Numbered from the stretch's first letter, positions 23,320 through 61,627 are shown. The stretch: 64,000 bases of DNA from a virus (IMGVR_UViG_3300028603_000002:64001-128000); one strand, 5' to 3'. Translations and numbers: made by a program. Notes: generated by a model from the letters alone, not told the origin.

Positions 23320-23322
23320 AAA

Positions 23323-24063: not shown

Positions 24064-24120
24064 ATGGAAAGATATGGGTCTTCTAAACCTAACATACCAG
24101 TTCGAGTCTGGTCGGGAGTA
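24049..24120 (+). tRNA. tRNA-Arg(TCT)
   Basis: GGGT-CTTCTAA-ACCT. Confidence 0.85.
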
Positions 24121-24125
24121 CAATC

Positions 24126-24215
24126 GGTAGGTGATATTTTTAATGGAAAAATCCCCGTCTTGAAAACGGGTGGATCTCTGAGAAAGGGGTTGGGGTTCGA
24201 GTCCTCCGCCTACCG
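24126..24215 (+). tRNA. tRNA-Ser(TGA)
   Basis: CCCGT-CTTGAAA-ACGGG, long variable arm. Confidence 0.85.
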
Positions 24216-24235
24216 CAAATAAATCTTTAACACAA

Positions 24236-40600: not shown

Positions 40601-41176
40601 GTTGGCAAATTGCTAAACCGCTTAATTACGAAAAGAAACACACCACATTAAAGGAACGATTTGCTATGGCAAAGAAAGTGTTATTTGGAAAAGCAATAGC
40701 GGTGCAATTTTTTACCGACTTGACCGAAGAAGAGAAAATTGCGTATGTAAAAACACAACTTCCAAACGAAGTAGTAACGTAGCTATCGGCTATAATATCC
40801 CTATAACCTTAACGTACAAGTTGTAAACGCCTTTAAAGTAGAATTTGAGGTATGAAAAAACTAACTAAAAAACAGATAAAAATGATTGCGACAATGCACT
40901 CTGCAATGCACTTAGCAGGGGTGGACTTCTTTATGTTCGACCAACATTGTAACGCAACAGTTGATGAGCAATCATTGATTTTGAAAGAAATACATTCTAT
41001 AGCAGAAAAATTATCTAAAGGGGAGGCAATGAATTTAGGTTCAACGGAAAATATAATTAATTACGTGCGTGGGAAATTTTAATTTATTTCCTATAACACC
41101 CGTATAAACTTAACTACCCACAGCGATAGGCTGAACGCTAGCGGGACGGGTATAAACAAAGTAAAACGAACGAATT

Positions 41177-41320
41177 ATGGAAATAACAATTAATTTACCT
41201 GAATGGATTGCTTACATAGGTGTAATTTTAATAGCACTATGGGCAACAGATAAAACACTATTACTTATAAAAAAGTGGTATGAATGGAGAATACGCAAAT
41301 TGAAAGACAAAAGTAAGTGA
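41177..41320 (+). CDS. 47-aa membrane peptide (cassette gene)
   Basis: MEITINLPEWIAYIGVILIALWA... Below the ORF-track cutoff. Confidence 0.55.
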   Translation: MEITINLPEWIAYIGVILIALWATDKTLLLIKKWYEWRIRKLKDKSK

Positions 41321-41635
41321 GTGTATGAGTAGGGAGATTTATTAACGAAAACTTTAACAAAATGACAAAGCAAGATTTTGACAGATATTTAGATTATTTA
41401 ACGTCTGAAACTGGATATGACTTTAATAAAGTGCAAAAAGCATTTGCATACCAAGCAGCTAAAAAGTACCATGAGCAAGCCTTACGCAAGCACGATGCTG
41501 TAGAGCGAAGTGAACAGTGTTGCTCACCTACCGATGGTTTTTATTTAGGAACTACTTGTCCGCATTGCAACAAACCTTTCAGAAAGGATATAAAGTGAGC
41601 AACACTGCCTACAACACCCGTATAAACTAAACATC

Positions 41636-41803
41636 ATGAAAGTAAAAGAGCTAATTAAAGAGCTTCAAAAGCAAGACCCGGAAAAGGAGGTAATGATACA
41701 GCAGGGCGAAGAATTTGACTACATGTCGATTCAAACTGTAAAAGAAATGTATGTAGATATGGACGAGGAGATGATTCTATCCGTCGTTATCAAACATTCC
41801 TGA
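41636..41803 (+). CDS. 55-aa hypothetical protein (cassette gene)
   Basis: MKVKELIKELQKQDPEKEV..., starting 4 nt after a repeat copy. Confidence 0.6.
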   Translation: MKVKELIKELQKQDPEKEVMIQQGEEFDYMSIQTVKEMYVDMDEEMILSVVIKHS

Positions 41804-41807
41804 TTGC

Positions 41808-41939
41808 TGCCAACGGTTCGCAGCTATATTTAGTTGCGGATTTAGAACCACAAAACTTTAAGATTAGATAAAATGAAAATGAAAAAAGAAAATTTGGATA
41901 ACCTACAAAAACCGCAATTGAATATAGCTGCTGTTAGCA
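41808..41939. mobile_element. attC-like recombination hairpin overlapping the start of the 41873 gene
   Basis: AAC(41812)..GCAGCTATATTTAGTTGCGG / CCGCAATTGAATATAGCTGC..GTT(41933). Confidence 0.7.
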
Positions 41940-43838
41940 ACAGTTGTTTAGTCTGCGGAAAGCAATTAGTCAAAGAAACTGCCGAACATGGTAACGGTAC
42001 GTGCTCTGAATATTGTAATGCTAAATATAGCGGGTATCCAATGCCACACGATTATTCAGAAGGATTACAGAAGTTAGTTAACAATTGTTGCTAACGGTCG
42101 TATAAACTTAACTACCTGAATGAGCTAACTGATAACATTAATCACCTTTTAAAGTGTCATTTTCAATTATGGGAGCAGAAACAAAGAAATTAGCAGAAGT
42201 GCGCTACGTTACAGATACAGACGTAAGTTACTATGAAATTGGGGAAGTCGAAGGCGCGTTCCAAGAAGCACAACTTAAAGACTACATTAAAAGATTTGGG
42301 CACGAAAAACTATGTAGCCGACTTGCTTATATGCAGTTCCAAATATTTAAAGCTGTGCGTGAAATTAATGGCGAACGTGATGAAGAAACAGGTGCGGAAT
42401 GTTGTAATGCTACATAACACCCGTATAAATGGTAACGGTTATGTATCTGGTGGCGAGTAGCAGGGGAGTTGTAAACCCCATTGCAATGACAATGACAAAC
42501 ATTGGTAAAAACAGTGCAATATGCTTCCTCGCCACTTGTACATCACGGCTACGGCTGAACTCTCGTTGCCGACCTAAATACGAGAGATGAACTTTCAAAC
42601 ACAAATTACGATGAGTAAAAAAAACAAAGCATCGAATCAACAACAAGGCAATGGAGCTTTAGCCAATGTTAGCATTAGTGCTTCTTCGGTTGGTTGCCCA
42701 GAGTGCAAAAAGAAAGGCTGCGGATTCTGCAACGGTACTGGATTAATTTGGTTTTATCCTTCACCTGATGTTTATGACCATATAGAGATATCAAGAAGAA
42801 AATGGCGAATAGCTCAAAGGCATAAATGCTAACACCTGTATAAACTTAACCATATCCGCTATGTGTAGTAGCGGTTAAATAGAGCGAAAATTATGAATAT
42901 AGACGAAGTGATCAAAGAAATTAATGATTTAAGTGCTGAAATACAATATGTAGGCATTGATTCAATCAAAGATGATTATTCCGCACAACAAGCACTTCAT
43001 ATATTGAAGCAGAGAATAGAACCATTACCTGCACACAAAGTTAGACGTTGTGCTTTTCAGTATTGGGACGGACGTAAAATAGTTGAAGATAAAGATCAGC
43101 TTACACTTGATGAGGCCAAAGAGCTATGGAATAAACACTATACTGATATGGTGAAGAAAGTCGAAGAAGGTGAGGATATAGAAGTTGTTATTTGGGTTAA
43201 CATGAAACATCCATCAGATTATCAGGAAACTTTAATTCATTTATACGCACCCGAAGTTAGGAATGGCAGTCTTTATGAGCCTAAATATTATGGTGCAACG
43301 ATATAGAATTAAACCTAAAAATCAATAACAGATAAAACTTAATAAAATGGAAGAAACTAAAAAGCAAGCATTACATAAACTAATGACTAATGAAGAAATA
43401 CTTAGCTTATATAACAGAATAACATCATTAGAACATAACAGAATAACATCATTAGAATATAGAGTTAAAACTCTTGAAGAAGAAATTGAGAAATTATTTA
43501 AAATCAATATACAACTGACAAAAAGAATTTCAAGATTGGAAAGTAAAAGATTAATAAAAGGTAGAATAGGAAGAAAATAAAACTTTGATATATCATGACA
43601 TTTAAAGAACAATTACGGAAAGATTTTATCCCCAGATTGTAACGGATAATTGAAAAAGAAATAGATCATTTAAAATGGTTGATGGATAATAATGCCGATG
43701 AGAAGATGATTGAATCTAGTGTGAAGTATTTACGACATTATAAAAAACGACATAGGGAGTATACCGAATATGCTGCACAGACAGATGATGAAAATGATTT
43801 TTAGCATTGCATTAGGGTATAAGAAAGCAAATTCAGAA

Positions 43839-44237
43839 TCAGTTATCAAATATATTTTTAATAGTATTTAACTTAACTTTAGATCCGTCATATATTATAT
43901 GTTCATCATATGGAGTTTTATAATAATCAAATTTAGTAGATAATTGATCAATAACTTTCTTCATATTAGGATTCACAATTCTACCCTCAGGTATTGATAT
44001 ATGTCCATATTTATGAATTATCATAGATATCATTTTCATCGCATATCCTCTACGTTGATATTCATCTTTAATGTCGATATGTAATTGATTCCACCCCTTC
44101 TTCAATCTAAGATTAATATTGCCAATTTGATTTCCATCGTCAGTAAAATCAAATTGAACAAATTCACCATTTGTTGACGATTTAAATTTCAAACCCGATT
44201 CGTGAATAAAACGCCTATATATTTCTATCAATTTCAT
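43839..44237 (-). CDS. GNAT acetyltransferase-like protein
   Basis: LHIDIKDEYQRRGYA motif A. Confidence 0.65.
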   Translation of the reverse strand: MKLIEIYRRFIHESGLKFKSSTNGEFVQFDFTDDGNQIGNINLRLKKGWNQLHIDIKDEYQRRGYAMKMISMIIHKYGHISIPEGRIVNPNMKKVIDQLSTKFDYYKTPYDEHIIYDGSKVKLNTIKNIFDN

Positions 44238-46479
44238 AAATATTCCTTTTTACCAACAGCCATTAGTTATTTCGTAATATGAAATAAATATAAGGAAGTT
44301 ATTTGTCCTAATATTTCTGTCGGTATAATGTTTTATGTTAGTTTATGATTAGATTTATATCTTTCAGCTAGTTCTTTTAATGTTCTTTTGTCCATTGCTT
44401 ATATCATTTTAGGACTGTAACTAACATATGATTTATCCATAATTACTTCCATTAACCTCAGATCCTCAATAGATAACAGTCTAAACTGTACTGGGTCTTG
44501 GGGTATTTTATGAAGTAAACCATATCTCTCTTTATCATAGTTCAGACATAGTACTCTAACATCGTAACTCGGACCAACATCTAAGTAAAGAGTTCTCCCT
44601 ACAAAATATGCTTGCCGCAACTCTTCTAATGATTCGTTATGTTTCCCTGCCAGAAATCTTAAACAATTTGTTATGAATCTATGAGATAAACCCATTGTTC
44701 CATACCATTCAAGTAATTTTCTTTTTTCTTGTATGTCCATTATATGCAGTGTTTTATAGGTTACATAATTAACCTGATAAGTTATAATTTATACTATTAT
44801 CCTTAAATGCCTTTCGCAAATGTTTCAAGTTTCTCTCACAATGATTAGCAAACTCCGGGTCCGCGCTCCCGATGCTTGATGCATTCTCTTCTATCATACA
44901 CACAAGAGCTTCAAATTGCCTGGGTGTTAGTACCAAAGTTATCTTTTTTGCCATTTCTTAATAGTGTTTAGAAGTTATTGAATTAAGAAGGAATATCATT
45001 TCCATCATATTGCTTGAATTGTTTTTGTGTCCATCTTGTTGTGAAATACCCTTTTTTATAATTGAAATGTGATGATCTAACACAAGTACCACTAAACATT
45101 TCTCCGTACTCTTTTCCTTGTGGAGTTTCATTTAGTTTTCCGGTACATCTGACTACAATCCCATCGCTCTCTACCAAATTGCCTTCCTTAAATAAATTTA
45201 ATTGTTTCATCTTTAATAGTGTTTAGTTATCTAATACTTCTTAATTACATAATAAAGATAAGTAAAGTTTTTCAATTATCCAAATGATTACGAGAATATT
45301 TTCGAGAAAGATGAGAAAGATGCTATATAAAACAACCCATATAACTTAGTTGTAACAAGAGATAATCTTTATAATGGTATAAGGGTATAGATTCTCATAA
45401 ATAATCAAGGAGAATTAAAGTATGTGGGTGATACAGCAAAGTATAGGTATGGTGAGATAGTAAAACTTTAAGTGATGGCATATTAATCAGACATATTCTA
45501 GAGCCATTGAAGTATAAGATCTTGATCAGTAGGATTTAATCTCTTTTCTGAAAGAAGTTGTTTTAATTTAATGCTCATTATTTTCATTCCTTTTATATAA
45601 TTACTTGATTTCTAATTCACCCTCGAATGGGTTGAAACGATCTGTTAAGAATGAAGAAGATCTATGTCCTTTCTTAATATGGGTTCCTTCGGCTCCTACA
45701 ATAACAATACCACTAAATACAGTTTCACCTCCCCAATTATCAATTTTACCATCACAAAGAACTACATATTGTTTAGATGTAACGTCTGATTTAAATATAA
45801 CAAATTTATCTTTGCCGAATATCTCTTTTATCACTCGGTCAAAATCTGAGGTTGATTCATCTTCTCTTAACAAATCTTTTAGTTTTGTGCTCATTACAAT
45901 TTTCTATTTTGCAATAAATATAAGGAAGTTATTTCAATTATCCAAATGATAAGTAAAACAAGTTGCATTGAATAACAAAGTACTTTGAAGTACAAAGTGG
46001 ATATAATCAGAGGGAAGCAAAAACAATCGTTGGAGGAATAAAATATTTTTTATACATTTATAATCAAATTAACTAAACTAAAAATAATAGTATCATGAAA
46101 AAAGACAAAGAGTAAGATAAAATAACAAATGCAAGTATAAGACCAGGAATTGAAGAATTCACAGTACACATGCTTTACAACGCATTGAAAGCAATGAAGA
46201 AAGATAAAGAGCGGGAGGAACTAAATTCAATAATTCCAGATAAAGAATTAGATGATGCATTTACAAACACCAATTTCGGAAATATTACAAAAAGAGATGT
46301 AGTAAGATATGCACTATTAAAAGCAGCTTGTGGATATTATAGTGGACATACAGCTCAACGTATTATAAATGAATTAGGTTTGTGTAGTAAAGATTTAAAA
46401 TTAACAAAGAAAGGTAAAAAATATTTGTATGCATCATTTAGGAATGGAACGAATCATTAAAATAAAGTAGAATACTGAA

Positions 46480-47160
46480 TATGTGATATACGTGTAGAAG
46501 AATAAAAGTATAGTAGTATAAGTAGTTATAAAGGTTAATGGAGTATACTGATATAAGATGTATAGATTAGTAGATTGTACCACTGAGCGAAGCGAAGTGT
46601 TGAAGTAAAGTGTATAGGAATAGTTTAAGCAAGTAGAATAAAGTTATTAGGTTTGAAGGTTTGTATACGGAACGGAAGGAACGAAGTGACTGGAGTGGAG
46701 TGTATAGAAGGAATCTATACGATTAATAAAGTTATTAGTTTTACCTATATCCTGGAGATAAGTATAATTAAAGGTCTAGTTAATATTATATACAGGGGTA
46801 AGTAAAGATTTTAAAAGTACTTTGAAATACAAAGTGGATAATATATGAAAAATAAACTGTAAGGGTTGCTCTGAGTCTTCGCTTGATCTCCACAATTCCC
46901 AAACTATATTAAACTTTAATCTAATACCAAATCTTAATAAAACCAAATATCCTATTGTTGGGTGTAAAAAATCCGCGGCCTACAAAAATAAGATCAAAAG
47001 ATTTATAAACTTTAATCCACTAAAACCAAATAAAACTAAAGTTTCATAGAAATAAATACTAAACAACTTCACTCCAGTCACTCCAGTCACTTCACTTCAC
47101 TACACTATGTTACGTTTCACTTAGTTCCTTTCGTTCAGTACATAAACCTAGGAATCAATT
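46480..47160. repeat. strand-asymmetric non-coding region with an imperfect inverted repeat
   Basis: 46659-46704 GGTTTGTATACGGAACGGAAGGAAC..GAAGTGACTGGAGTG is complementary to 47070-47150 CACTCCAGTCACTTC..GTTCCTTTCGTTCAGTACATAAACC. Confidence 0.65.
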
Positions 47161-48287
47161 AAACATTAGTATTTGGTTATCTCCTATGTATTCATTAACT
47201 TTATTATCTAATTAACTAAACATATTATGGATAAATACGAGATTACAGTATGGAGATCTGATAAGGATAATGATCCTTGGGTGGAGTATGTATATGCTGA
47301 TTCTAAATCAGAAGCTTTTAAGAAAGGAAAGGAAATGTTTTATTCATTTCAGGTAGGTAGTATATATGATGTACTTGTAGTGAAAGTTTAAGTGTTCTGG
47401 AATGCCCGTGAGATTGTAACTATTCCCAGAATCTTGTTATCACTTGTTTTCCTTAGTTCTCCTGTGTTTTATTGTATATTGGATACCTTATTATACCTTT
47501 GCTGTATCTCTTATTATACGTTAGTTATACACGTTATACAACTATATGAAAAATAATTGGTTAAAAGTTTGGAAATCTGAAAAACTTTACTTATCTTTAT
47601 TATGTAATTAGGAAGTATTAGATAACTTAAAACACTATTAAAGATGAAAAAGATATCATTAAAACAAGTAAAACAAATAGCCTCTGAAATTTCAAAGAGG
47701 TGGAAATTTGTTAAACACAGTTCATATTACAACTGTATTGATACTAAAACTGGACAGGAGTCAAATGTGGGAGGAGATTATAATTTTGCCAGTTATCATT
47801 TTAATAATGCTGTTGAGGCAATGTATTTGAGTATGATTGGTGAGAACGCGTTGTATCTTGATTGGAGTACAGTGGGTGTGAAAGAATCTGAGGAACGCAA
47901 ATCCTACATTTACAAAATACGAAAAGAGATAGTTCGACTTCTTTGTGGTTTTGACTTTGCGGGTTGCGAAGTACTTAATTATCAAAAATAACTTAGTAAC
48001 ATTAAACAAAATGGCAACAGAACAAAATATAAAAGACGGACACAGATATTTGATACAATTAAGTGTAAAGCAAGATAGCTTTTTGTTTAATATGTGGGAT
48101 TACGTTGAAAGTGTAAAAACACTTAAAGAGGCAGAAAAGCTATGTGAAGGACTATATGATAAAAGCGTTCACAAACTTCAAATATGTGATTTAGTAACGA
48201 ATACTATTGTTAGAACGTGGACGTAGCCTTGCAGCTAACATCCATATAAACTGTACATAAAATAGCAGAAATTAAAACAATAACATT

Positions 48288-48821
48288 ATGATAAACAATA
48301 TAGTCATTAAAAATGAAACCCGTGAAATGGGGAGGAAAATAATTAAATACTTCAATGATCGAGGTATTGATACACGTATACTTAATGGCACAGCTTGCGC
48401 GGAAGAAATGCATAACAATATATACTATGGAGTTATTGATGGTTATTTTGATAACTACACCTTAAAATATGTAGAAAGAGCAGGGGCTAAAATAATAACG
48501 CTACCTGAATACCCAAAAGTAATGAGGGTAGCGCATGATAAATATTCTACCAGAACCCAACGTGTGGTCATAGGTACAGCAGATGCTGGCACCCATATCC
48601 AATATGTTGCATATAGAGATGCAAAAACATTAGATGATATACCATATCCCACTGAATTCAGGCTGTGGGACTATGCGGAAGATATTACAGAAACAGAACC
48701 TATCCTAATAGGAAATAGAGAAGTAGAAGTAACTGAAGATGGAATAAAGGTAGGTTGTACACAGGTAGACAATGAAACAATAAAAAAGATATATAACTTA
48801 AAATTTAAAGATAATGAGTAG
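48288..48821 (+). CDS. hypothetical protein, N-domain paralog of 51008..51556
   Basis: Shares RG.DTR.L.GT.C and YYGVIDG.FDNYTL..VE.A.A.II.LP. Confidence 0.7.
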   Translation: MINNIVIKNETREMGRKIIKYFNDRGIDTRILNGTACAEEMHNNIYYGVIDGYFDNYTLKYVERAGAKIITLPEYPKVMRVAHDKYSTRTQRVVIGTADAGTHIQYVAYRDAKTLDDIPYPTEFRLWDYAEDITETEPILIGNREVEVTEDGIKVGCTQVDNETIKKIYNLKFKDNE

Positions 48822-49108
48822 ACAAACATTCGACACTAGAGTACCTGATATGGTACAAGCAGTACTAAAGAACAATGGTGCAACCTATATAAGGAGATAC
48901 ACCGAACCAAGAATCAAAGGATATAGAACTAAATGGTGGGGAATAAATAACATCTCCCTTAATGTAGAAGAAAGGATTAAGATGTTACCTGGTATAAAGA
49001 GAGTAGTAAATATACCTGGCAAAGTTCGGTCGCCACAATCATTTGCAGTGTTTTGGGAATAATTAAACATCCTGTATAACCAATCTGAGATTTCATTTTT
49101 ATAGTGTT

Positions 49109-49147
49109 AGCCCTTCATGGTAGAGATATCATGGAGGGTTTTTCTTT
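49109..49147 (+). terminator. intrinsic terminator
   Basis: GCCCTTCATG...CATGGAGGGT followed by a T-run. Confidence 0.75.
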
Positions 49148-49379
49148 TATACTAGGATAGGTTATTGTTAAGGGGGGGTAATTGTATAAGTATAGGGGGG
49201 TATTAAAGGGGTGGGGTAAATAGGGGTTAAAAAGGGGGGTAGGGGGGTATAGATATTACGTTAAGAGGTGGGGGGTTCTACCTGTTAAAAGCCGGCCCAT
49301 ATGGGGTCTTAACGTGAGTATAATTTTTACTATTTCAAAACAACATTTTATTTTTTATAATATGATAATGATTTGTTGC

Positions 49380-49592
49380 TTTACTCCTACTATTCCAGTT
49401 ACAATCCACTTCGCCTCCACTTCGCCTCCGTTACACTCCGGCTCAGTATACATATCTTCAAATCTATTCCACTTTACTCCTATTATCCCAGTTACACTCC
49501 GGCTCAATATACATATCTTCAAATCTATTCCACTTCACTCCAGTCACTTTACTCCTATTATCCCAGTTACACTCCGGCTCAGTATACAAACC
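49380..49592. repeat. about 61-nt tandem repeat, 3 copies
   Basis: TTTACTCCTATTATCCCAGTTACACTCCGGCTCAGTATACATATCTTCAAATCTATTCCAC at about 49380 (with an insertion), 49473 and 49548 (partial). Confidence 0.85.
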
Positions 49593-51007
49593 TTTGTTAT
49601 ACCCGTAGTACACAAATAAACAATGAAATACTTGTATATCTCAGAAAAATTCATTATCTTTATTATGTAAATAAAAAGTAGAAGTTATGACAACTAATTG
49701 TACAACTTGTAGTAATTGCGGGCAGGTTATTGAAAATGTCATTATCATAAAAGGGAAACCTTATGGTAATACATGCGGTGCCAGACTATTAGGATTCAAA
49801 GAATTTCCTACTTGGTTTAAAGGTGGTGATTGGGATATGGCACATAAAGCGCATATCAAGTCACAGGAAGAGCAAAGTCAGTATTTTGAACGTAGACGAG
49901 AGATTACCCGCAAGCATTCTTTTCTGCTCTTGCAAGGTATGAACGATCGTTAAAAACTCTACAACCATAAATACCTTCAGTCGTCAACCTCTTAATCTCT
50001 TTCCAGGACTTCACCCGCACTTTATCGCCGAGTTTAAAATCTGTAGACTGTTCACCTGCTTGTTTACCGTTACAGGACGTATCTGCCGGTGTTGCAAGTA
50101 ATTGGTCAAGCTTGGCCTCGATGCGGTTTAGCAAATCCATCAACTCGTCATCTTGCACGGATACGAGGACTTTGGCATCTTGCGGTGCTTCCGCTGGCTC
50201 GGGGTATTTTTCAAAGAATAGAGTGTAATTACCGTCATTAAGGACCGATTTCCAAAATGAATAGTCCTCCGGGGTTTCAAACCAGTCAAATCCGCCATTT
50301 ATTCTGCCAGTGGTCCGCCTCTTCTCAAACACGCTCACATCTCTTGGATTACCCTGCGTCACCTGATGCTCTAACATCTTATGAACAATTGGGTCTGCAA
50401 TGTTTTTAAGGTCGCCTTTGTATGAACATTTCATTTTGCTTGATTTTTATGTGTGAATTAATGTTATTCTTCCTCCTCCCACTCAATCAACGGACAGTGG
50501 TCGTCTTTTAATTTCTTCAGGCCATGTCCTACTGCTTTAAAGCTCTGACCTGCTTTAGATTCGCGGTTCCTCAACTTTTCAGGTAGTGCTTCGAAAAAGA
50601 GGTAGCTTAATAAAACCGTAGCTAATGCCGCTACGGGAACGAGAGCAAATACCAGAGCTGCGGCCCATACTACTTGGGATGCTGTGTTTATATATCCCTG
50701 ATCTAACTGAATCAATGCAGGCATAATGGAGATTATCAAATGAGTCAGGCCGATGCCCCATAATGCCTTAGTGCAATACATACTATGCCATGTAGGTTTA
50801 GTAGTATCTTTATCAAAATAAGACAATATATATGCTATAGAATAGTATAACACCCCCGGTATTGCAGTCACTAAGAGAAGTATAATCCCCACTAGCCCTT
50901 TCCATGTAAGGCTACACCAGTTAGTAGGATAAGAGTATGGATTACCTTCAGTAAACTGCCAGGCTTTTACGAATAGGTTGTTTTTACTCAGTTTCATAGC
51001 GGGGTAT

Positions 51008-51556
51008 TTAGCTTTTGATTATTACCTGGTCAACGCCCAATTTCTCGGCTATTTCCTCCATTGTAAGCTCCATTATAATTTTGGGCGGAGTGTATTTGTA
51101 CTCGTCGGTGTAGAATAGATCGTCAATGCTACCTTTGATGTACTTATCTGCCTTCTCGGGCGCCAAAACTGAATCCCGCGAGATTATTCCGTCCTTTTTG
51201 GCAAATAAATATAGAAGGTGCTTGTTTTCGCTGACTGAGTCGCGACCATATAACCAACGATACCCCAACTGAATAAGCCTCACCTGAATAGCTCTTGAAA
51301 GTTCAGCGGTAGGCACATTAAACACATAGCCGCCGATTGAAGGTAATTCAATTATTTCAGCGTTGGCTTTCTCTACTTGACGCAATGTGTAATTATCGAA
51401 TTCCCCGTCAATAACTCCGTAATACCTGTAGGAATCACCATCAGATTTACAAGAGGTTCCTACAAGGTGGCGTGTATCAAATCCCCGACTTTTCCAATAC
51501 TCAATGACCTTTGCCCCGTGGTCGGGCGTTAGTGCTTCAATTACTTGGTTTTTCAT
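51008..51556 (-). CDS. hypothetical protein, paralog of 48288..48821
   Basis: Shared N-terminal domain. C-terminal ELTMEEIAEKLG motif. Confidence 0.7.
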   Translation of the reverse strand: MKNQVIEALTPDHGAKVIEYWKSRGFDTRHLVGTSCKSDGDSYRYYGVIDGEFDNYTLRQVEKANAEIIELPSIGGYVFNVPTAELSRAIQVRLIQLGYRWLYGRDSVSENKHLLYLFAKKDGIISRDSVLAPEKADKYIKGSIDDLFYTDEYKYTPPKIIMELTMEEIAEKLGVDQVIIKS

Positions 51557-52068
51557 TTTACAAAAGTTTTTGTTCGTTCTAAAATCTCATCCCCCAACAT
51601 CCTGCGAACAATATCGGCAGTTTGGCGTTGGTTGGCCGCTTTGTCTGAGGCAGTACGGTCAGCAGCAGCAGCAGCAGCAGAAGAATTACCACAAACAGCA
51701 CAATAAGCAGCATCAGCAGCAGCAGAACGATAACCAACAGTAACAGCAGCAGCAGCAGCAGCACGATAAGCAGCCTGCAACTCTTCCTCCGTAAGCAATC
51801 CCTCTCCGTAGGCAATAGCCGCATCAACACCCTTTATGCTGCGCGCATCTTTCATCAAATGCCTGACCGTGTTCGCACAGTGTCCTGCGCAGCCGACTAA
51901 TTTACGGCGATAAACGCCCGCTTTCTTCGCCCACCATAGCAGCCAATCGCCACGATGGCAGTCGGCTAAGGTTTGGGTAGGGGTGCGGTCGCCAAGCCAG
52001 TCAATGGCATCTTCGCAGGCAGGACCTAAATGGCCTTCGTCTGATAGTAGAAATTCTCTGAATGTCAT
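51553..52068 (-). CDS. poly-Ala tract protein
   Basis: RGDWLLW and D.RS motifs followed by GCT-repeat poly-Ala. Confidence 0.65.
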   Translation of the reverse strand: MTFREFLLSDEGHLGPACEDAIDWLGDRTPTQTLADCHRGDWLLWWAKKAGVYRRKLVGCAGHCANTVRHLMKDARSIKGVDAAIAYGEGLLTEEELQAAYRAAAAAAVTVGYRSAAADAAYCAVCGNSSAAAAAADRTASDKAANQRQTADIVRRMLGDEILERTKTFVK

Positions 52069-53205
52069 AATATAGATTTAATTACAATGTAATTTAGCAA
52101 GAAATTCCATTTATCACAAATTGTGGGTGCGCAATTTACTATTTAAAATGATAAAAAAGAAGGTACACTACCTTTATAGTTCACCTTCTTGAAAACACGA
52201 CCCGACAAAACTTTTACAGTCGGAATTGGCCGATGAGTTCATCAGCATGGTGACACTCAGCATGACAGTCGCAATTTCCAACACAGCTGTTTCTTGCGGA
52301 TAGCCAGAGATGATTAATCAATGGCAATTGGGAAGATTTCGACAACCCTGATAACAAGTCATTCATGCTAATTACTAACCATGATTTACTATCATGAGTT
52401 TGTACATGAATTTCTTCCACTATGTCGTCATCTAACACAAACTTAATCCTGTTACCATTATCTTTACATTCATAAATTACTTGTTCCATTTCTTTTTGTT
52501 ACCTTAAATTTCAAAATTGCCAGTAGGGTGAGGGTCGAACTCACAATATAGCTTCTGAATAAAGTGGGTTGCCAATTATTATCCTTTTCCCTAACGCTCC
52601 TAGACCAGTCTTATACTTTGTTACTTGATGCTGGTTTTAATTAAGCCTTTCTAATTAGAACCTTTTGATTATACTATAAATATAAGAAAGATCTTTCAAA
52701 GTACCAAATTATTTTGAATAAACTTACGTAATCAGTTTGATGGTACAGCACTGGAGCTCCTAAGTGGAGCTCCAGATTTTAAAAATATATGGTATGGTGC
52801 AGAGTTGCAAACTCTGTTTTGCCAACAAAAGAACTATGGCTAACAGCACCTAACCTCAATAAATTATCACGGTATTCATCGGCTGTAAAGTTTTCAAAGT
52901 TTGTGGTTTCTATATTCATTTGTACTAATTTTAAGTTGAAGATGTTAAGCTTATACGGATGTTAGCAAACATTTTCCAACCCACACCGCACTTGAATATT
53001 TCCAAGTTCCAATTCTCTTTCAATATCTTCAATATCTCTCCAACAATCTACTCCAACTGTATAACTATACCATCCACAAAAATCTTCAATACTATCATCA
53101 AAATAACCTTCTGAATATATTTCATATTCAAAACCATCGACAAATTCTTCTATTGTCGGTATTCTATATCCTTTTCTTAATTCTTCTGCCATCGCTAAAA
53201 ACGTT

Positions 53206-53299
53206 TGCTAACAAGGTATATATGCAATACCCTATTAAGGTTTGTACTAAATTTTAAAGTTTGGTGCAAGGGTGCTGCATATATACCCAACCGTTAGCC
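53206..53299 (+). mobile_element. complete attC-like site
   Basis: GCTAAC-AAGGTATATATGCAATACCCT...AGGGTGCTGCATATATACC-CAACC-GTTAGC. Confidence 0.75.
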
Positions 53300-54987
53300 A
53301 CCATTTGACGACCGTTGTACTTCGACTGCAATTTCTTCAAGCAATTCAAGTATTTCATTTGCCCAAGTGTGGTCTATGTTTATTTTTGATACCTGAGTGT
53401 CAAATCCGAGCTTTTTAGCAACATCCATATCGTGTCGCATTTCGCCCTTGAATCTCCTGTATTCTTCTTTTTTCTTTGTGATGAGTTCTAATACTTTTTC
53501 CATAACCGTTATCATTTATACAGGTGTTGACTACTCACCAATATAGTGTGTTTCAAAATCATAACCATCATTTACCTTTTGAAGTTTACCTTCGTCAAGA
53601 TTTATGATTTCTCTTATATTTTTAAGTTTAGTGTCAGCAATTTCTTTTGTGTGTATTTCAATATCAATACCTCCAGAACCGTCACCATCAATTTGAATTG
53701 GCAATAATCTGTTTGCACCAACATCACCACAATATTGTATTTTTCTGAGAGCAATCATAAAATCTTTTAAATCTTCATCAGAAATTGCTGTAATTCGCAA
53801 GTCAATAAATTTTCGTTCCATATTGTCGTTTTAAGTCGTTAAAATTATGTGCGCATAGCCATAACCGTTACCATTTATACGGGTATTGTAGCACATACGC
53901 TCACTACTTTTTCGGTTTCAATTTACCGTCTGCACATTTAGGGCAGTATATTGTTTGATGTTTTGTAATTCTCCACCCTTTTTTACTCCACGCACTGGCA
54001 GCATCATACGGGTCGCAATCCATTTCTCTTCCAATAGTTCTACACTTATGGCACATTATTGTGTTTTCAGTAGTACAATGTTCGTATAGTTCATGTATTT
54101 CATCCATCTCCGTTCGTTTTAAGATGTTAGTAATAGTTTATAAGGGTATTATCGGCAATTATTCCCAAGTAATTTCCACCATTTTTGCATCTTCCATCAT
54201 TTTCATTAATCCGCAAAATTCTCTCCAATGATATTCAGTTATTGTTTCACCTATACTATTACTAAGTTTATTTAAACAGTTGTATATCTCTGTATTAATA
54301 TAACTACCGCTAACAACAGGTGTACTTGATGCTTGTGTTTCTGCCATTTGTAAGTTCGGTTCTTTTTTCATGTTGATTAGTTGGTTGGTTTATACGGGTG
54401 TTATAGGCAATTGCCACTAAAGTATCTCTCTACATTCGGGACAATAATTTTCAGCAATTTGTTGAACCCATTTTTTATTTTTATGTTCACATCGTGGCAA
54501 CTGTTCGCTTTGCCGTACAACATTGTATAAATCCAATTGCTTACGTGCTTCAATCAATTGAGCTTCCAACCAATCCTTGTAGTTGTCGAGGTCAAAGTGT
54601 ATGTCTGTTTCACCAACCGTTTCAGGATGGTCAAGTCTAAATTCTTCTTCAAATGTATATCTCATAATTTCTGTTTTTTAATTCGCCCTACGCATACAAT
54701 CGACCGTTAGCGTTCAGCCTATCGCTGCGGGTAGTTAAGTTTATACGGGTGTTAGGTGTAATGTCAACACCATTCTACGCTAATCACTTTTAGTTTACAC
54801 CCATCAACATCATTTATTACATGCCCTTCCTTGGGGTGAGAGTCTGTAATTGATATTGGTTCATTTGTCGGTTCACACCCCATTTTGAACAATAGTCTTG
54901 AACCTTTAGGTAAAAATGCTTTTGAGGTCTTTGTGATGAACCAAGTTTTTAACTTTTCGTTACCCCAAGCAAATCGAACAACGCTAC

Positions 54988-55107
54988 ACCTAACATCCGC
55001 TATAGTGCACGTATGTTCTGTTGTTTTTGTAATATTTTGCATAACTCAAAGTTTATTTCTGTTTGGATGCGTTATTGAAGCCACGCACCATAGCTTTACC
55101 GTTAGGA
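54988..55107 (+). mobile_element. attC-like site containing the start of the 54764..55042 gene
   Basis: CCTAAC..GCTATAGTGC / GCACCATAGC..CCGTTAGG. Confidence 0.65.
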
Positions 55108-56288
55108 GAAGTTAAAGAGAAAACCAATCACTTTCCTCTTGTCTACTCAGAAGCTCCTCAACAGCCTCTTTGGTAGCAGGACAAGCGGAGTAAAAACAAT
55201 TCTTTGCTTTCACCTCAAGTTGCTTCAGCTTTTCAAAGTCTCCGTCCACTAATTGAAAAAGAAACAGAGTTTGCTCGTTGCTGTGATTAGTCCGATCGGT
55301 TAACCAATTAAGTCGTTCTTTATCAAGCTCGTACTTATAGGTATCTTTGCGTCCATACTTCAATTCCATATTCTATTAGCTTTACGATGTTACTGTTTAT
55401 ACGGGTGTTAGACGCAACGCTAAGAAACCAACCTACCTTCGACATTTTCTTTCATTTTGATTAACTCATCCCTATAACCAGAACCACCATCTTGGTTGGA
55501 ATAGGGCATTTGCAAGTGTTCATTTATTTTTACCAACAACTTAGCTGTTTTCACTTTGTTATCCTGATGCTGGTCAATCCATTTATTGTATTTACGAATA
55601 ACTTTGTTTAGTTTGGTTCTACCTTCTTTCCACCAAGATATACCTACATTTTCATCCCACTCTACTATTTTTTCCATATTCCGTTCGCTTTACGATGTTA
55701 CTGTTTATACGGGTGTTGTGTGTAATTAAAGCAAGCCATCGTTATTTTCGCCCATCATCGTATCAACGGCTTTTTCAGCATCTTTAGCCGCACTTTTAAG
55801 CAGCTTCTTTGTGTTTTCAGGTTCGTTTCCTGTGGCTACATCTACCACGTCTTTTACAATTGCAACAGGTGTAAGTGCTGTTTTTACTGCTGCTGAAATT
55901 ACGTTTGTTAAGAATCCCATTTGATTAAAATTAACTGCTGCCAACAATGTAGTAAGGCACAGGCAGCGTTTGTGCTTATCGCTGTGGGTGGTTGAGTTTA
56001 TACGAGGGGTAGGTGTAATACTAAAGATTCCTACTAACCAACCCTGTTCCATTACACCAAGTACAATCTTCTTCATTACCAAAATCGTCTATTTCAATTT
56101 TACCGCCACCCCAACAAACAGTACATTCCAATAATTCCTTAGTGGAAGTACTGCTGCCAACAGCACCTAAATCGCTATTGGCGGTGCTGTGGTTGTTCTT
56201 ACTTTCGTTCTTACTTTCGTTCATTACGGTTTAAGTTTTACCGAGTTTCCTAAATTGAGGGTAGTTATGTTTATACGGGTGTTGTGCT

Positions 56289-56693
56289 TCATGCAAGGAA
56301 ACTCCCGTGCTTAATTATGAAGTACAGTTTATTAGGGTCTCCGCCTAAATCAGGCTTGCCCCATCCGATCTCAATTCCTTTGTGTTCCATTTTCAATATC
56401 CTTTCCTTATCAGTTGATTTTGGATAACCCAATGTCATTGTGTTTGTAAGGAATGGCTTAAAACCAATCATACTTCTTTTCAATTTATCCCCTGCAATAC
56501 TTGACAGATAGGCGTTTATAGATTGTTTGTCCAAGTAATCCCAATCATATCCAGACGTGTACTTAAAAACCTTCTTATAGTCAAATACAAGTCTTTTAAA
56601 CCAGTAATCGTTTATGTCTCGATAATCTTCGGTTTTTACGCCCGATTTGGTCATGTCGAACCATTTTTTTTTAAGTGATAATTGCAAATTCAT
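56289..56693 (-). CDS. ASCH/PUA-like domain protein
   Basis: L.LKKKWFDM.KSG.KTEDYR....YW..RL and LGY motifs. Confidence 0.75.
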   Translation of the reverse strand: MNLQLSLKKKWFDMTKSGVKTEDYRDINDYWFKRLVFDYKKVFKYTSGYDWDYLDKQSINAYLSSIAGDKLKRSMIGFKPFLTNTMTLGYPKSTDKERILKMEHKGIEIGWGKPDLGGDPNKLYFIIKHGSFLA

Positions 56694-56715
56694 TTTGTAT
56701 CAGTTAAGCACGAAA

Positions 56716-56844
56716 GCACAACAATTGCTATAAAACATAGGGCGTTCGTGCGGTTATTAAAGTGTAGGGTTGTTTTTCAGGTGTTCGGTGTTTTCGAACA
56801 ATTCGGCTATCTATACCCTACGTTTCATGGCATAGCCGTTAGCG
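56716..56844 (+). mobile_element. complete attC-like site
   Basis: GCACAAC..GCTATAAAACATAGGG / CCCTACGTTTCATGGCATAGCC-GTTAGC. Confidence 0.7.
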
Positions 56845-56845
56845 T

Positions 56846-57034
56846 TCATTTTGACGACGCTCTCCGTACTTCTTCATTAAGCACATCGTAATTGTCTTTA
56901 ATGTACGCCTTTACATCGCCACTGCATTTGTTATTGTCATACAACCAAATCAGATAAGACGCAGGGACATTTATCATTTTATAACCTTGATATTTTCCCC
57001 AAGGCATAGGGCTTTCATCTGTTAAGTTTGCCAT
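56846..57034 (-). CDS. DUF3820-like small protein
   Basis: MPWGKYQG.....VPASYLIWL. True ATG at 57034, just after a repeat copy. Confidence 0.7.
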   Translation of the reverse strand: MANLTDESPMPWGKYQGYKMINVPASYLIWLYDNNKCSGDVKAYIKDNYDVLNEEVRRASSK

Positions 57035-57071
57035 TTTGTTTAAGTTTATACTGGTGTTGTAGCACATACGA

Positions 57072-57287
57072 TCACTGCACTTTTGGTCTCCAATGTGTGA
57101 TTTCGTAATCAACATCACCATACTGTCTGTAATCGTAATGTCCAATTCCTGCCTCAATCCACCAAGTATCCCCCAAGTAGTAGCCAACAAGTATCTCATC
57201 ATTATAGTCTTGCCTTAGCTCACAATCAATAGGCTCATCGTTTGCGTCTAATTCAGGCAGTCTTTCATTTACATTTATCCAATTCAT
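57072..57287 (-). CDS. DUF551-like protein
   Basis: WINVNERLP...ITHWRP. A related gene lies at 59308..59508. Confidence 0.7.
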   Translation of the reverse strand: MNWINVNERLPELDANDEPIDCELRQDYNDEILVGYYLGDTWWIEAGIGHYDYRQYGDVDYEITHWRPKVQ

Positions 57288-58923
57288 ATCAGTTCACGTT
57301 AAGTTTATACGGGTGTTAGCAGCAATTATGCCCTTTTAGGATAGTGCTTCATACATTTGAAACAAGCCATTTCATCATATAGTGGTTTTAACTCAACATT
57401 GCAATCAGGGCATAACTGTTCGCTTTGCCCTACAACATCATGTATGTGTAAGGCTATGTTTAGTGCTTTATCAGCAAGTTTGTAAACAGTTGTAGTTCTA
57501 GCAAGCTGTTGTGTTTGCATTTGATGTTCCTTTATTTCTTCAAGTATCTTAATTATATCTTCCATTTCTAATAATGTTTAGTGTGAATATTCGCCCTACA
57601 TATACACCCGGCCTTTAGCGTCCAGCCTATCGCTGTGGGTGATTAAGTTTATACGGGTGTTATGTGCAAGCACTACTGACCTGCTTCTTTATCAAGTTTT
57701 TTATAATGTCGTATAACATACGCAAGTTTATCTCTAAAATTAACCCTTCGCAATTGTTGAATAATGTCGCTGAATTTTTGTGCTTCATTATCAGGTATCA
57801 TCGAAATTAGTATATCATCGTGTTCGCAATGTATAGTTTCCATAAAATCATCTTGTGTCAAGCCTTCATCACAATGGTCATACATTTTTAATCTTGATGC
57901 TATTTCAGCACAATATTTGTGAGTTTTCCAGTCGTAAACTTGACCATCGTATTTGTGAGTAGATTTTATATAAGTATCACCTTTAGGTATTCTACACGCA
58001 CAAAAATTACAACTATGTTCTTTAATGGCTTTCGTTTCTTTTGGGTATGTTAATGTTTCCATATTTTAATCAAATTTTAGTTGTTAATAACCCGCTACTA
58101 CATATATCGGATGCGGTTAAGTTTATACGGGTGTTGTAGGCAAGCTCTACTTACATCTGAAGTGAGTGAGTACTGCCATCGGATGTTCATCTTCATATCT
58201 ACATTCCGTACCATCATCAAACCTACACAGGCAGTTTCGTTTTGCGTACTCATTGAATATTGATTCATTACCTTCAAATTCGAGCCAGCCACTAACAGCA
58301 AATAAATCCAATATTCTGTCAGCGGTATTGGCAACGCTTTCACCTATTATACACTTGTTTAATAGGTCGATAATTTGTTCTCTTTTTTCCATACTGTCTT
58401 TATTATTTAAGTTAGTTGTAATGTCTCCATACTAAGCCACTCGCCTTTATATTTACCAGTGTAAAAGGGTATATTGCAAAAGCTCTCCAAAAGAAGGAAA
58501 CTTCGGCATCAAGTGCGCTTAGTATCCCGATAGTGGCGTACCACATAATCCATAATCCCACTATAAGCACCACCGCTAACAATCTACGAAATGCATTCCT
58601 ATTGGTTTCTTTATAATTTTCATCCATGATTCTATGTTTTGTGTTTATTTATTAAATTCTATGGTTCAACGCATCTAATACTCTTCCGTTGGCAGAAATA
58701 CAAGTTGGCCGTTATCCCATCCGCTCAGGTTAATTTCAATCGGCAAAAGTGACTCCTTGCCGTCATATATGCCGTGCGTGTATTGATGCAAAAACGCTAA
58801 CTGCTCATTCTCTGTCAACTCGCGGGTAACCTTAAACGACCCAGAGCCTATCGTTTCGCCAGTGTCACGTTGGTAAACTTTGAATCTGTATGCAAATCTT
58901 TGCATTCTAATTTTTCTCTAATG

Positions 58924-59301
58924 TTAGGCACAAGCACTACCGACACGCTCCAAAATAGCATCTGCGTGACAAGGAGAAGAAAGCGAGCAAAAACACGCTA
59001 AATCCTTTCCTTTTAGTTCGGTAATGCTTGGCGGAGTTGGCAAATAAGGTGCAATTGCTTTTAATTCACCATCAAGCCATCGGCCGTATAAATCAACAAT
59101 ATCTTTTGTTTCAAATCCACCTGAATAACTCCACATTATCCAAGGGTCTAATATTTTCCGATTAGTCGAGTAGCATTGAATAAAGCCATCATGTGTTAAT
59201 CGAAATGGATTTCCCCATTTAGTAGGTCTCCCTACATACTTTGCGTTTTCGGGCATTCTCCATCCCTTTGTTCGCCTTCTTTGTATTCGTTTCATAATCA
59301 A
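58924..59301 (-). CDS. DUF4326 family protein
   Basis: YVGRPTKWGNPF and ELKGKDLACFC....CHAD motifs. Confidence 0.85.
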   Translation of the reverse strand: MIMKRIQRRRTKGWRMPENAKYVGRPTKWGNPFRLTHDGFIQCYSTNRKILDPWIMWSYSGGFETKDIVDLYGRWLDGELKAIAPYLPTPPSITELKGKDLACFCSLSSPCHADAILERVGSACA

Positions 59302-60580
59302 AATTTATCACTTATTTGGTAGTTCTGGCAACTCCGTCCAATGAGAAGGGAACACGCTCTCCCCATTTACTACCCATGTTTTGCCATCTTTGTGTAAATG
59401 TCCAACCCTCATTATAGAGTCTTCACCTGTTTCTTGAAGTATTAGCAACACTTCTACTTCCGTATCGGGGGTATTGTAATTTACATCAAACCAAATTGTT
59501 TCATTCATATCTGTTCACGTTAAGTTTATATAGGTGTTAGCAAACATTAGGTAAGTGATATGTAATATTTTTTCTTTTGATTTTCGACTGCATCAACAAA
59601 CCAACTTGGTAAGTTGTATTCAGTACATATTTTTTCAAACTCTATTTTAGGTAAGTAGCCTTTTGCTCTATCTTCTGCATACATTTTTATATGTAGGTTT
59701 ACACTACCTTTCGTCTTTAATAGAGTTTTTAACTTTTCAGGTTCACAAGTTGGTTTTATTACACCATTAGTATCATATAGGTAAAAACATTCCTTTGCGG
59801 TTTTACCGTTTTTATCAAATTGTATCAATTCAATTCCTTTTTTATTATGATAGTATTCAGTACCATCAAAAGAAAAAATATTAGATACAGATAAGTACCA
59901 ATTATAGTCTCGCTCAAAGTTTTTGCTGTATTTCATAACGTTTGCTAACAAAGTGTATGTGTAATAAGGCTACTTATCTACTACCTTTTCAACTTTCAAC
60001 TCATAAAGCTCACCTTTGTATTTAAACTGAACTTTTTCTTCAAGCTGTAAAAGGTGTTGAGCTACTGCGCCAACAGCCGTATCTGTTACATCATGTTTTG
60101 TTTGCCCCCAAGTTCCGTTCTTCAAAACTCTTCCAGCAAATAATCTACTCGTTAAAGGTGAGCAACCTACTTTAAAATCTGACATAATCTTTTTGTTTTA
60201 ATACTGACTACTTTACATTCCATATCAGTTTCCGTTAAGTTTATATAGATGTTGACAGCCATTTATTGAAACCACTGCTTAATCTGTTCTGTTCTTTGTT
60301 CGATCATCTCATTAATCTTTGGCAGCAATGGATAATTAGTTTCGTCAATCCAAACAGTTTCAGACTTACCATCTTTGCCTAATATAACTGTCGGAGTTGC
60401 TACAGAATAAATTTCTGTTCTTTTAGCGTGGAGTTGTTGCAACTGGTTATCGTTCAAGATCGCTTCTGAAATTAAACGGGGGCGAAGAGCGTATTTATTC
60501 AATGTGGAGTTTTTGTCGTTATTGTTCATTTCGGTATTTCGTTTTAATCTTCCGCGCTGGCATAGCGGATGACGTTAAGT

Positions 60581-60835
60581 TTATCCGGGGTTGATTGTGT
60601 CTTGAAACTTCTTCCTCAATGCTGACATCATAGCCTCAATAGCCCTGGGCATTTTTTTCACAACTTCATCTTTTGTTCGGCCCTGAACGACAACACCCTT
60701 AAGCTCCTTAATAATTCCTATGAACAATCCGGTTTTCTCATTATGAATTATCACCCCAGTGAAATTCTTGGTTTGTGCTTGTCTTCCCATGATAAGTGCT
60801 TTTGATTGATGTATGAAATTAATTAGCTTCCACAT
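60581..60835 (-). CDS. HicB-like small protein
   Basis: ELKGVVVQGRTKDEVVKKMPRAI pattern. No adjacent HicA seen. Confidence 0.6.
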   Translation of the reverse strand: MWKLINFIHQSKALIMGRQAQTKNFTGVIIHNEKTGLFIGIIKELKGVVVQGRTKDEVVKKMPRAIEAMMSALRKKFQDTINPG

Positions 60836-61627
60836 GTAGTCCGGATTTTTTGAACTTTTTTATAGCATTCCTGAGATTCAGAGCCGTAATGTAGTAGCAC
60901 TCCTTCCGGAGAATTAATTTGTTCCGTTTAACGTAACTCCCAGTTAACGACTCTACCGCTATATCCACCTCCTCCAACGGAGCTTCTGTCACTACCCCAT
61001 CATCCCATTGATACACTGTATGCCCAGGCTTCAGTCGTCGTGTACCGATAAAGCGGACTTTTTTCTCCTCCGCGGGGGTAACAATTTGCTGTTCTTGTTT
61101 AATTTGATCTGGCTTAATCTCCTTCATTGTTTTCCTTTTTTGTCAATGTAACGTGCAATAATTCATGTTTTCATAATTTTATCTTTTTAATTTGTACTAT
61201 AAAGATATGAAAAATATTTCAAAGTACCAACTATGAAGCGAAAGATGTTTCTAAATTTGACCCGACCGCGGGAAAATTTATAATATCAGGTACAAAGATA
61301 AAATTTATTGTGTAATTATCGAAATTTTCAATTCAAATAATTTTCCTACATGTTTATTTGGATATCTCCTAAAAATTCATTATCTTTATTATGAAATAAA
61401 ACAAGAAACTATGTATTATGTAGAAACAATGATTGATGGTATACTCCATTACAAAACAACACCGCATGGAAATTGGATACCTATTTCTATAGAAGTACTA
61501 TCACAAAGGGTGGTAAAAGCGGAAAAAAGAGTATCATTACTTAAAGATCAATTGCAAGAAGCTAAAAGTATACCCAAACTAACTTCTGAAGCTCTTGGGC
61601 AATTATTCACTGGAAAATCTAATTGAT

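Follow-up and report, generated by a model that had tools for sequence, protein, structure and literature searches.

The question raised by this locus is how a phage can combine the beginnings and ends of its small proteins anew while the reading frame is carried across the joint. The locus lies in bases 64,001-128,000 of the complete 171,908-bp genome of the virus IMGVR_UViG_3300028603_000002, and this whole stretch of 64,000 nucleotides (nt) is called the window below. Because the genome has genes for a major capsid protein of the T4 Gp23 type (E 7e-71) and for a recombinase resembling RecA/UvsX (E 4e-53), the phage is assigned on these two genes to the T4-type myoviruses. The window is AT-rich (~30% G+C) and holds two convergent arrays of small genes, to which a repeat of 15 to 20 nt (ACCCGTATAAAC / AACACCCGTATAAAC(TTAAC); ~24 copies, with a plus-strand span of 41,095-42,850) is confined genome-wide. 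An earlier note on this DNA had proposed that many array proteins are read through an attC-like arm, with its GTT core as a valine codon, and that recombination at this GTT could swap N- and C-terminal modules in frame. We find that modules have been re-joined in frame many times at the arm inside the open reading frame (ORF); however, the main pile-up of breakpoints lies at a second GTT box, and the frame is preserved in most cases but not in all.

Exchange of heads and tails within array genes

The ten peptides put forward as examples of translated arms are all present in their ORFs, and the first triplet of each arm is an in-frame GTT valine codon, gene 41362 (genes are named by a window coordinate) reading GCT GTA at this place. 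Three genes share an xVVxxSEQ junction, and their N termini are indeed unrelated and their CxxC tails different. Homologues of two array proteins led to ~45 related metagenomic loci, in which the small genes share the same architecture despite a different intergenic motif. The repeat of the window is absent from loci L056-L062, where a lineage-specific intergenic motif follows ..YAAC.

The N-terminal module (N-module) of gene 54417 (MRYTFEEEF..) is nearly invariant across 91 protein clusters and is followed by 68 unrelated tail families, among them many distinct CxxC..CxxC ribbons as well as helical tails and domains of greater length. The two halves of such genes do not always co-occur, and the points at which they part are not random. 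In 63 of the 91 clusters, homology of this N-module stops after SEQ or SEQL, which is the second GTT box; it stops within NVVG, corresponding to the first GTT box, in 18 clusters, and at a single earlier point in 5. The main breakpoint pile-up is thus at the second GTT box (CAG TTA, Gln-Leu), 6 to 8 codons past the valine, with the valine codon itself as an additional site. The same border is seen in the DNA, since the window, L099, and L100 carry the same sequence up to CAGTT and unrelated sequence afterwards.

Gene 57326 documents exchange on both sides of the junction. Its N-module occurs with at least 12 unrelated tails, and the DNA of the window and L056 is identical up to ..TGTT and then diverged. 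Its C-terminal module (C-module) was found in only three proteins in 5.8 billion, each behind a different N-module; the other two are encoded in L088 and L089. The DNA of the three copies is ~92% identical over a segment that begins with TGTTGTAGG and ends with TAATTGC, and shows no relationship to either side of it. Between the window and L088, the C-module differs by 8 synonymous and 3 non-synonymous changes when read in the frame of the N-module, and there is no start codon at the module border. Judged by this coding pattern, the tail is translated as a fusion, and the fusions are not annotation artefacts created by true starts downstream of the GTT. Similarly, the module that follows the valine in gene 41873 has another N-terminal part in protein P0114 and stands alone with its own methionine in P0116 and P0118.

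Whole cassettes are also gained or lost between contigs that are 97 to 99% identical elsewhere (L056, L057, and L058, two of them from the same sample). Compared with L056, L057 has an extra 415-nt cassette bounded by ..ACAYATAAC, and L058 has an extra 1.8-kb block of five genes bounded by a 58-nt repeat that consists of the intergenic motif plus leader.

Hairpins that close the C-terminal modules

The arms described as attC-like in ten genes of the window can be paired with a 3' arm directly before the repeat in seven cases (genes 41362, 41873, 42587, 54159, 54417, 54764, and 57326), with stems of 9 to 16 bp, and the inner stem of the gene 41362 cassette has 13 bp. The paired 3' arms end in ..YAAC (or AAT) and abut the array repeat. 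The remaining three did not hold up as well: the arm of gene 42893 has no repeat downstream and forms 8 bp including 2 wobbles, that of gene 58147 pairs at ~6 of 9 positions, and in the gene 56021 cassette the arm had been mis-assigned, the true one being a shorter hairpin 52 nt ahead of the repeat and not at the valine quoted. Gene 41873 was described accurately in both of its features. Its start codon sits in a hairpin loop at 41812-41935, where TTGCGG pairs with CCGCAA in the minimum-free-energy fold (hairpin A), and its C-terminal half has self-complementary ends that form a stem of 16 bp (hairpin B).

True arm pairs have duplex energies of -20 to -26 kcal/mol, compared with ~-14 for arms swapped between cassettes and ~-12 for shuffled arms. 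A hairpin scan of the whole genome anchored at ORF ends placed 6 of its 14 matches, and 3 of the 4 stems of at least 11 bp, in the arrays, although these cover just 7% of the genome. Looking for GTT..AAC stems of any kind (at least 9 bp, wobbles allowed) was uninformative because shuffled sequences match as often, ~27 times per window, and the anchored scan and the comparison of cis with trans arm combinations were used instead.

A scan in which G.T and A.C were treated alike identified 61 hairpins at ORF ends across the window arrays and the related loci. The stems span 85 to 250 nt, within which lie the C-terminal coding module and the stop codon. The canonical form has a continuous stem of 14 to 16 bp, in which 5' GTTR-N6-GTTW.. 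pairs with ..WAAT-N6-YAAC 3'. The N6 segment and the bases inside the second box vary from cassette to cassette and yet remain complementary, so that the two arms covary. A G.T pair occupies stem position 11 in all ~23 stems of at least 12 bp. On the sense strand G.T/T.G pairs outnumber A.C/C.A pairs 41 to 9, and it is therefore the sense strand that folds, as RNA or as single-stranded DNA.

A second form of the hairpin has a bulge of 9 to 12 nt, with conserved RCRAAGYGAACW, between the two GTT boxes. This bulged form corresponds to the 24-nt linker GTTGTAGGGCAAAGCGAACAGTTA; the three xVVxxSEQ genes read it as VVGQSEQL, and its Leu codon TTA is base-paired with the TAA stop within TAATTG. Past the conserved bases, the stem of this form is extended by 5.0 bp on average in cis and by 0.82 bp in trans, where no more than 3% of the arm combinations attain 4 bp. 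Conservation of the linker is at the nucleotide level and persists in genes that use a different frame: GTTGTA encodes Val-Val in most genes and Cys-Cys in L081-L083, and the bulge is read as SEQL, SELL, or PKGT according to a length difference of 1 to 2 nt. Over all 61 hairpins, the GTT is in frame 0 in 40.

Hairpin A is a second long-range stem, in which the leader just past the repeat pairs with the last codons of the N-module before the GTT and thereby encloses the start codon. In the gene 57326 type its variable pair is G-C in L068, G.T in L056, and A.C in the window, and in L100 GTATAAAGC pairs with GCTTTATAC. The idea that the end of the N-module might pair with the repeat downstream, and not with its own leader, was rejected because the N-module end in L099 and L100 matches only the upstream leader.

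In L102:407-670, L103:703-960, and L104:127-390, a premature stop or frameshift lies just past the linker and the full tail and closing stem are retained. Two short proteins (P0047 and P0090), followed up in a search for empty linker hairpins that lack cargo, both proved to be full cassettes with a premature stop.

Probable re-joining at linkers and competing explanations

The closest known system is the promoter-early stem-loop (PeSL), a short cassette of promoter and stem-loop in hyperplastic regions of T4-type phages (Arbiol et al. 2010, PMC2839356; Comeau et al. 2014, PMC4122927); recombination between PeSLs shuffles ORFans and makes mini-circles (PMC2839356, PMC4122927). The two systems share their setting in T4-type phages and hyperplastic regions full of small ORFans, the combination of a short conserved intergenic repeat with a stem-loop beside the stop codon, and indels or replacements between close relatives that are bounded by the repeat (L056, L057, and L058). 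They differ in three respects. The stem-loop of PeSLs is compact and intergenic, whereas the stem described here is long-range and its 5' arm lies within the ORF and is translated, and for this reason exchange occurs within genes (head and tail) and not only between them. The stem geometry here is fixed, GTTR-N6-GTTW with G.T at position 11. Finally, the PeSL motif holds an early promoter of the host sigma type; the array repeat here, a candidate promoter, is not a sigma-70 consensus.

We consider it probable, though well short of certain, that these are PeSL-like arrays in which linkers within the ORF, at the stop codon, and between genes re-join modules and cassettes, most likely through the phage's UvsX-type machinery. 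The sequences show the anatomy, in which each small gene consists of exchangeable pieces that short conserved nucleotide linkers connect, as well as the covariation and the pattern of breakpoints. Linker M is the intergenic repeat, which differs by phage lineage and is AACACCCGTATAAAC here; linker L lies in the ORF as either GTTAGC.. or the 24-nt VVGQSEQL sequence; and linker R extends over the stop codon as ..TAATTG..YAAC. As imperfect inverted repeats, L and R, with the cassette-specific inner bases, close the C-module into the sense-strand hairpin. Recombination at the linkers, among array members and co-infecting relatives, would move whole cassettes, and the same process would swap C-modules in frame downstream of an existing combination of promoter, start codon, and N-module. 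Since the frame and the stop codon are part of the linkers, the products would be in-frame head/tail chimeras. Linkers would in this way connect otherwise unrelated neighbours, the stem having moved into the gene relative to PeSL. As for the acting enzyme, we infer that the UvsX-type machinery of the phage probably works here on short homology, as proposed for PeSLs. Candidate roles of the hairpin are a PeSL-like attenuator or mRNA 3'-end structure, or a single-stranded DNA structure that focuses breaks.

Several observations weigh against this explanation. The right-side identity of the three shared C-module copies before they diverge is TAATTGC only, and the repeat to the left of the cassette inserted in L057 has a length of only 13 to 17 nt. 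The 7 to 17 nt shared at junctions make a short substrate for homologous recombination, a hint of a route that is site-specific or uses microhomology. A clear hairpin is present in only ~7 of the 23 cassettes of this phage (about a third), whereas some relatives have one in most cassettes. The outer stem has been lost in some copies, and in the window CTGCTAAC opposes GTTGTAGG. Homologous recombination alone also leaves the complementary N6, the inner stem, and the invariant G.T of each cassette unexplained.

In a first alternative, the hairpin itself guides the exchange. According to this explanation, which we regard as possible but distinctly less than likely, the folded sense strand, with its two GTT boxes one helical turn apart, asymmetric bulge, and fixed G.T, is the substrate of an Xer/IntI-like or other structure-specific enzyme that swaps C-modules in frame. 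Such an enzyme, at the same low level of confidence, would be an unrecognised one or be supplied by the host or some relatives, and would cut at the GTT/AAC base in the manner of integrons or of CTX phage with XerCD. The junctions are exact with only 7 to 17 nt of common sequence, and recognition looks structural in that N6 covaries and the GTT, AAC, and G.T are fixed. In addition, G:T mispairs are enriched on the recombinogenic strand of attC sites too (PMC5027507), and the related array L088 ends with a 268-amino-acid (aa) tyrosine recombinase of the Xer/IntI superfamily in cassette position. However, a search with PF00589 at E up to 0.1 found no match in the complete 171,908-bp genome (the same search matches all 14 control genomes), so that no tyrosine recombinase was detected there. 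The genome has no Y1 transposase either, and no recombinase domain is present in the proteins encoded within the arrays or in the region that separates them. The L088 recombinase has no relatives in this phage or in any other related locus examined; it falls below every NCBIfam cut-off, reaching 169.5 of 265 bits with the integron-integrase model over positions 3-181 of 315 only. The breakpoints, moreover, lie at several places (two left and two right) and not at one crossover point. In L088 the recombinase gene (1532-2338, plus strand) occupies the position of the last cassette, is preceded by a ..TTATAAC arm, and is the sole recombinase among the related loci.

The comparison with integrons, which the term attC-like had implied, cannot be maintained as drawn. 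On the folding strand attC runs 5' RYYYAAC (R')..L'..loop..L''..GTTRRRY (R'') 3', with AAC and GTT beside the central spacer (PMC5027507). Here the order is the reverse, 5' GTTR....YAAC 3', and GTT and AAC form the outermost stem pairs; the cargo lies within the hairpin, in loops of 60 to 250 nt, whereas the attC hairpin is compact and downstream of the ORF and leaves the cargo outside. The arms here belong to coding sequence, it is the sense strand that folds, and this genome has no IntI integrase and no recognisable attI/Pc platform. What the two systems have in common are arrays of single-gene cassettes in one orientation, sites kept by fold and not by sequence with only GTT/AAC conserved, two boxes with an asymmetric unpaired spacer and a variable loop, and G:T mispairs on one strand.

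A further explanation, to which we give somewhat less credence still, is that the hairpins are primarily mRNA structures, one per gene, serving as stems at 3' ends or in attenuators, as sites of processing, or as a helix that masks the stop codon. Recombination could then occur anywhere and only products that keep both stem arms would survive, an idea we rate just as low, and breakpoints would for that reason only seem to pile up at the stem bases. In both arrays the elements occur on the strand of the genes without exception, and the excess of G.U-type wobbles on the sense strand (41 versus 9), the position of the stop codon within the 3' arm opposite a Leu codon, and the second stem around leader and N-module all fit an RNA function. 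PeSL stem-loops, further, function as terminators (PMC2839356), and the hairpin has been kept in cassettes with a broken ORF (L102 and L103/L104). Against this, the folding energy over the whole unit is unremarkable (z mostly between -1.3 and +1.2), base changes in the 3' arm of the same cassette are uncompensated in L088 and L089, and Rfam gave no match in the arrays at the gathering score or at E up to 1. Loops of 60 to 250 nt without a U-tract are unlike known intrinsic terminators, and structural selection leaves a 24-nt linker common to unrelated genes unexplained.

That the C-modules are selfish palindromic mini-elements inserting in frame near gene ends and adding junk peptide is very improbable: they are units with inverted ends in frame inside ORFs, but the arms differ between units except for GTTR/YAAC and therefore offer no common terminal repeat to a transposase, the contents are mutually unrelated and include many CxxC..CxxC zinc ribbons under purifying selection, one module is also a free-standing gene, and no Y1-type transposase was found in the genome (other transposase families were not searched). 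Ogata et al. in 2000 are said to have described in-frame palindromic inserts in Rickettsia. The Rickettsia palindromic elements and bacterial MITEs (miniature inverted-repeat transposable elements; PMC10969869) likewise form hairpins of 100 to 250 nt in frame inside coding genes, but the units here are not copies of one element, contain diverse functional-looking domains, and share the stem base only. Membership in such a family was rejected because the arms have no more than GTTR/YAAC in common, one head occurs with 68 unrelated tails, and the contents are diverse.

Shufflons and invertible tail-fibre segments (Rci, Gin/Cin) also place recombination sites inside an ORF and generate alternative C termini. 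When 14 hairpin loops were inverted in silico, the products ran into early stops or consisted of junk peptide; the loop lengths modulo 3 are mixed, and a shufflon was rejected. The genome also differs from such systems in having no tyrosine recombinase, the class of the invertase Rci; Gin/Cin-type serine invertases were not searched for. Protein ends are swapped at conserved in-frame motifs in the VENN-delimited CdiA-CT, in Rhs toxin tips, and in His-box recombination of T-even tail-fibre adhesins. As in these systems, a short conserved motif (here VVGxSEQL) connects a conserved N-terminal part to a hypervariable C-module, with many unrelated tails per head. In contrast, the proteins here have only 50 to 130 aa and no immunity-gene partner was seen; the motif is conserved at the nucleotide level even in another frame, and a covarying hairpin with the stop codon closes the module.

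Re-joining at linkers, the explanation preferred here, brings PeSL-type modular shuffling to the level of domains with a defined structural signature, and this is what is new. Our searches, which covered open-access text, turned up no account of C-terminal modules in T4-type phages that are closed by a hairpin reaching into the ORF and can be exchanged in frame. PeSLs shuffle whole genes, whereas the shuffling at this locus concerns domains inside genes and takes place at a defined nucleotide linker; one head has at least 68 different tails in public data. Early-gene regions of phages are the main reservoir of unknown, fast-changing genes, many of which are thought to be anti-defence or host-takeover factors. 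The modules form a natural library of small zinc-ribbon and helical domains that are presumably aimed at different targets, and the signature GTTR-N6-GTTW...WAAT-N6-YAAC beside a lineage repeat allows such modules to be delimited automatically in metagenomes. The arrays also make it possible to test if recombination in T4-type phages is directed by secondary structure of DNA or RNA. Coding sequence has been engineered to carry synthetic attC sites (PMC7439510), and by analogy these arrays may be a natural counterpart. If exchange should be guided by the hairpin, the system would be an analogue of integrons at the protein level, within genes, and a standing diversity generator for phage early proteins.

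The arrays and their surroundings

Array features are listed in Table 1.

Table 1. Window positions of cassettes, hairpins, repeats, and promoter-like sites of the two arrays and their surroundings
Feature	Position	Strand	Details
Plus-strand array	40793..43310	+	small ORFan genes separated by repeat AACACCCGTATAAAC(TTAAC)
Repeat copies, plus-strand array	starts 41095, 41613, 42093, 42416, 42831	+	
Degenerate repeat copy	near 41807-41830	+	
Lone repeat copy	48237	+	
Minus-strand array	52944..60600	-	17 repeat copies; convergent with plus-strand array
C-module cassette, gene 41362-41598	41497..41627	+	linker L (GCT variant) 41497-41527; 3' arm 41595-41615; repeat 41616-41627
Gene 41873-42094 with hairpins A and B and repeat variant GGTCGTATAAAC	41820..42107	+	
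Hairpin A, gene 41873	41820-41830 / 41921-41931	+	encloses start codon
Hairpin B, gene 41873	41933-41948 / 42080-42095	+	16 bp, G.T at position 11; directly after hairpin A
Hairpin B, gene 42587-42832	42668..42845; arms 42668-42676 / 42825-42833	+	9 bp; stop TAA within GCTAAC
Hairpin bracketing whole gene 52962-53192	52949..53212; arms 53212-53197 / 52976-52961	-	16 bp; stop TAA within GCTAAC
Hairpin B, gene 54159-54371	54136..54314; arms 54314-54300 / 54162-54148	-	15 positions, 1 mismatch, 3 wobbles; ends AAT, not AAC
C-module cassette, gene 54417-54665	54388..54521	-	linker L and stem 54521-54494; 3' arm 54417-54400; repeat 54399-54388
Hairpin B, gene 54764-55042	54739..54994; arms 54994-54984 / 54761-54751	-	11 bp, then repeat
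C-module cassette, gene 57326-57565	57303..57436	-	3' arm 57334-57315 including TAA stop; repeat 57314-57303
Linker L and 5' arm of stem, gene 57326	57436-57407	-	GTTGTAGG, bulge GCAAAGCGAA, then CAGTTATGCCCT
Hairpin A, gene 57326	57440..57607; leader 57607-57594 / N-module end 57455-57440	-	encloses start codon and entire N-module
Copies of ~50-nt module	41094-41144 (+); 54704-54754, 57616-57663, 55974-56020 (-)	+ / -	
TTTG-N17-21-TAnnTTTR sites	39871-39990, 45238-45296, 45900-45958, 47153-47212, 47549-47608, 49612-49671, 52663-52712, 61185-61243, 61338-61397		

Judged by its sequence, the anatomy of the arrays is that of a hyperplastic region of a T4-type phage. The repeat core CCGTATAAAC, with at most one mismatch, occurs 24 times in the window against 3.0 expected. 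Copies of the repeat begin 1 to 19 nt past a stop codon, and the next ATG follows 10 to 110 nt further downstream; the repeat thus carries a TATAAAC core at this distance ahead of start codons. A Pfam search of 30 proteins from the arrays and the region between them returned only DUF4326, a QSregVF_b fragment, and weak matches. The exact repeat AACACCCGTATAAAC has 51 matches in IMG/VR, which we ascribe to chance because they are single and none lies in an array. A megablast search of 22 kb and 16 kb of the window matched nothing in the GenBank phage collection, and relatives of a neighbouring 609-aa protein have only ~32% identity and flanks without comparable arrays.

Four copies of a ~50-nt module, composed of the repeat and TTAACTACCCACAGCGATAGGCTGAACGCTA, are 94 to 96% identical between the oppositely oriented arrays. 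The module is an insertion compared with the homologous leaders of L099 and L100, and its sequence points to recent copying from array to array. One cassette of the plus-strand array (42425-42590) has no convincing ORF and folds at -51.4 kcal/mol (z = -3.3, with 1 of 200 shuffles folding as well); on this modelled fold it may be a small non-coding RNA cassette, for which there is no Rfam match.

Between the arrays, four ORFs at 49904-52068 (minus strand) form an island of 43 to 47% G+C, compared with ~30% elsewhere, and have no Pfam match. Aligned by eye over the N-terminal halves, the protein encoded at 51008-51556 is a clear paralogue of that of the AT-rich gene 48288-48821 (plus strand). 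From its composition the island looks like a recent import from another genome. The ORF 51553-52068 holds a GCA/GCAGCA-rich repeat at 51650-51772. A non-coding stretch with many G5-G7 runs, resembling a G-quadruplex (49150-49290, plus strand), is followed by tandem repeats of 61 to 93 nt (families D9 and D16; 49379-49616, plus strand). This G-run and tandem-repeat stretch lies between both arrays and adjoins a predicted promoter motif of the host type.

A second repeat family, TTTG-N17-21-TAnnTTTR, has 44 copies genome-wide and is found at the outer ends of the arrays and at other early-looking genes. It resembles Bacteroidota sigma-A promoters and is a candidate promoter of the host type. Elsewhere in the window, 22 tRNA genes and a transfer-messenger RNA (tmRNA) gene are clustered at 16256-24216 on the plus strand, and the tmRNA gene (17035-17409) scores 54 bits against a gathering score of 47. 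The T4 late-promoter core TATAAATA occurs 47 times, mostly outside the arrays.

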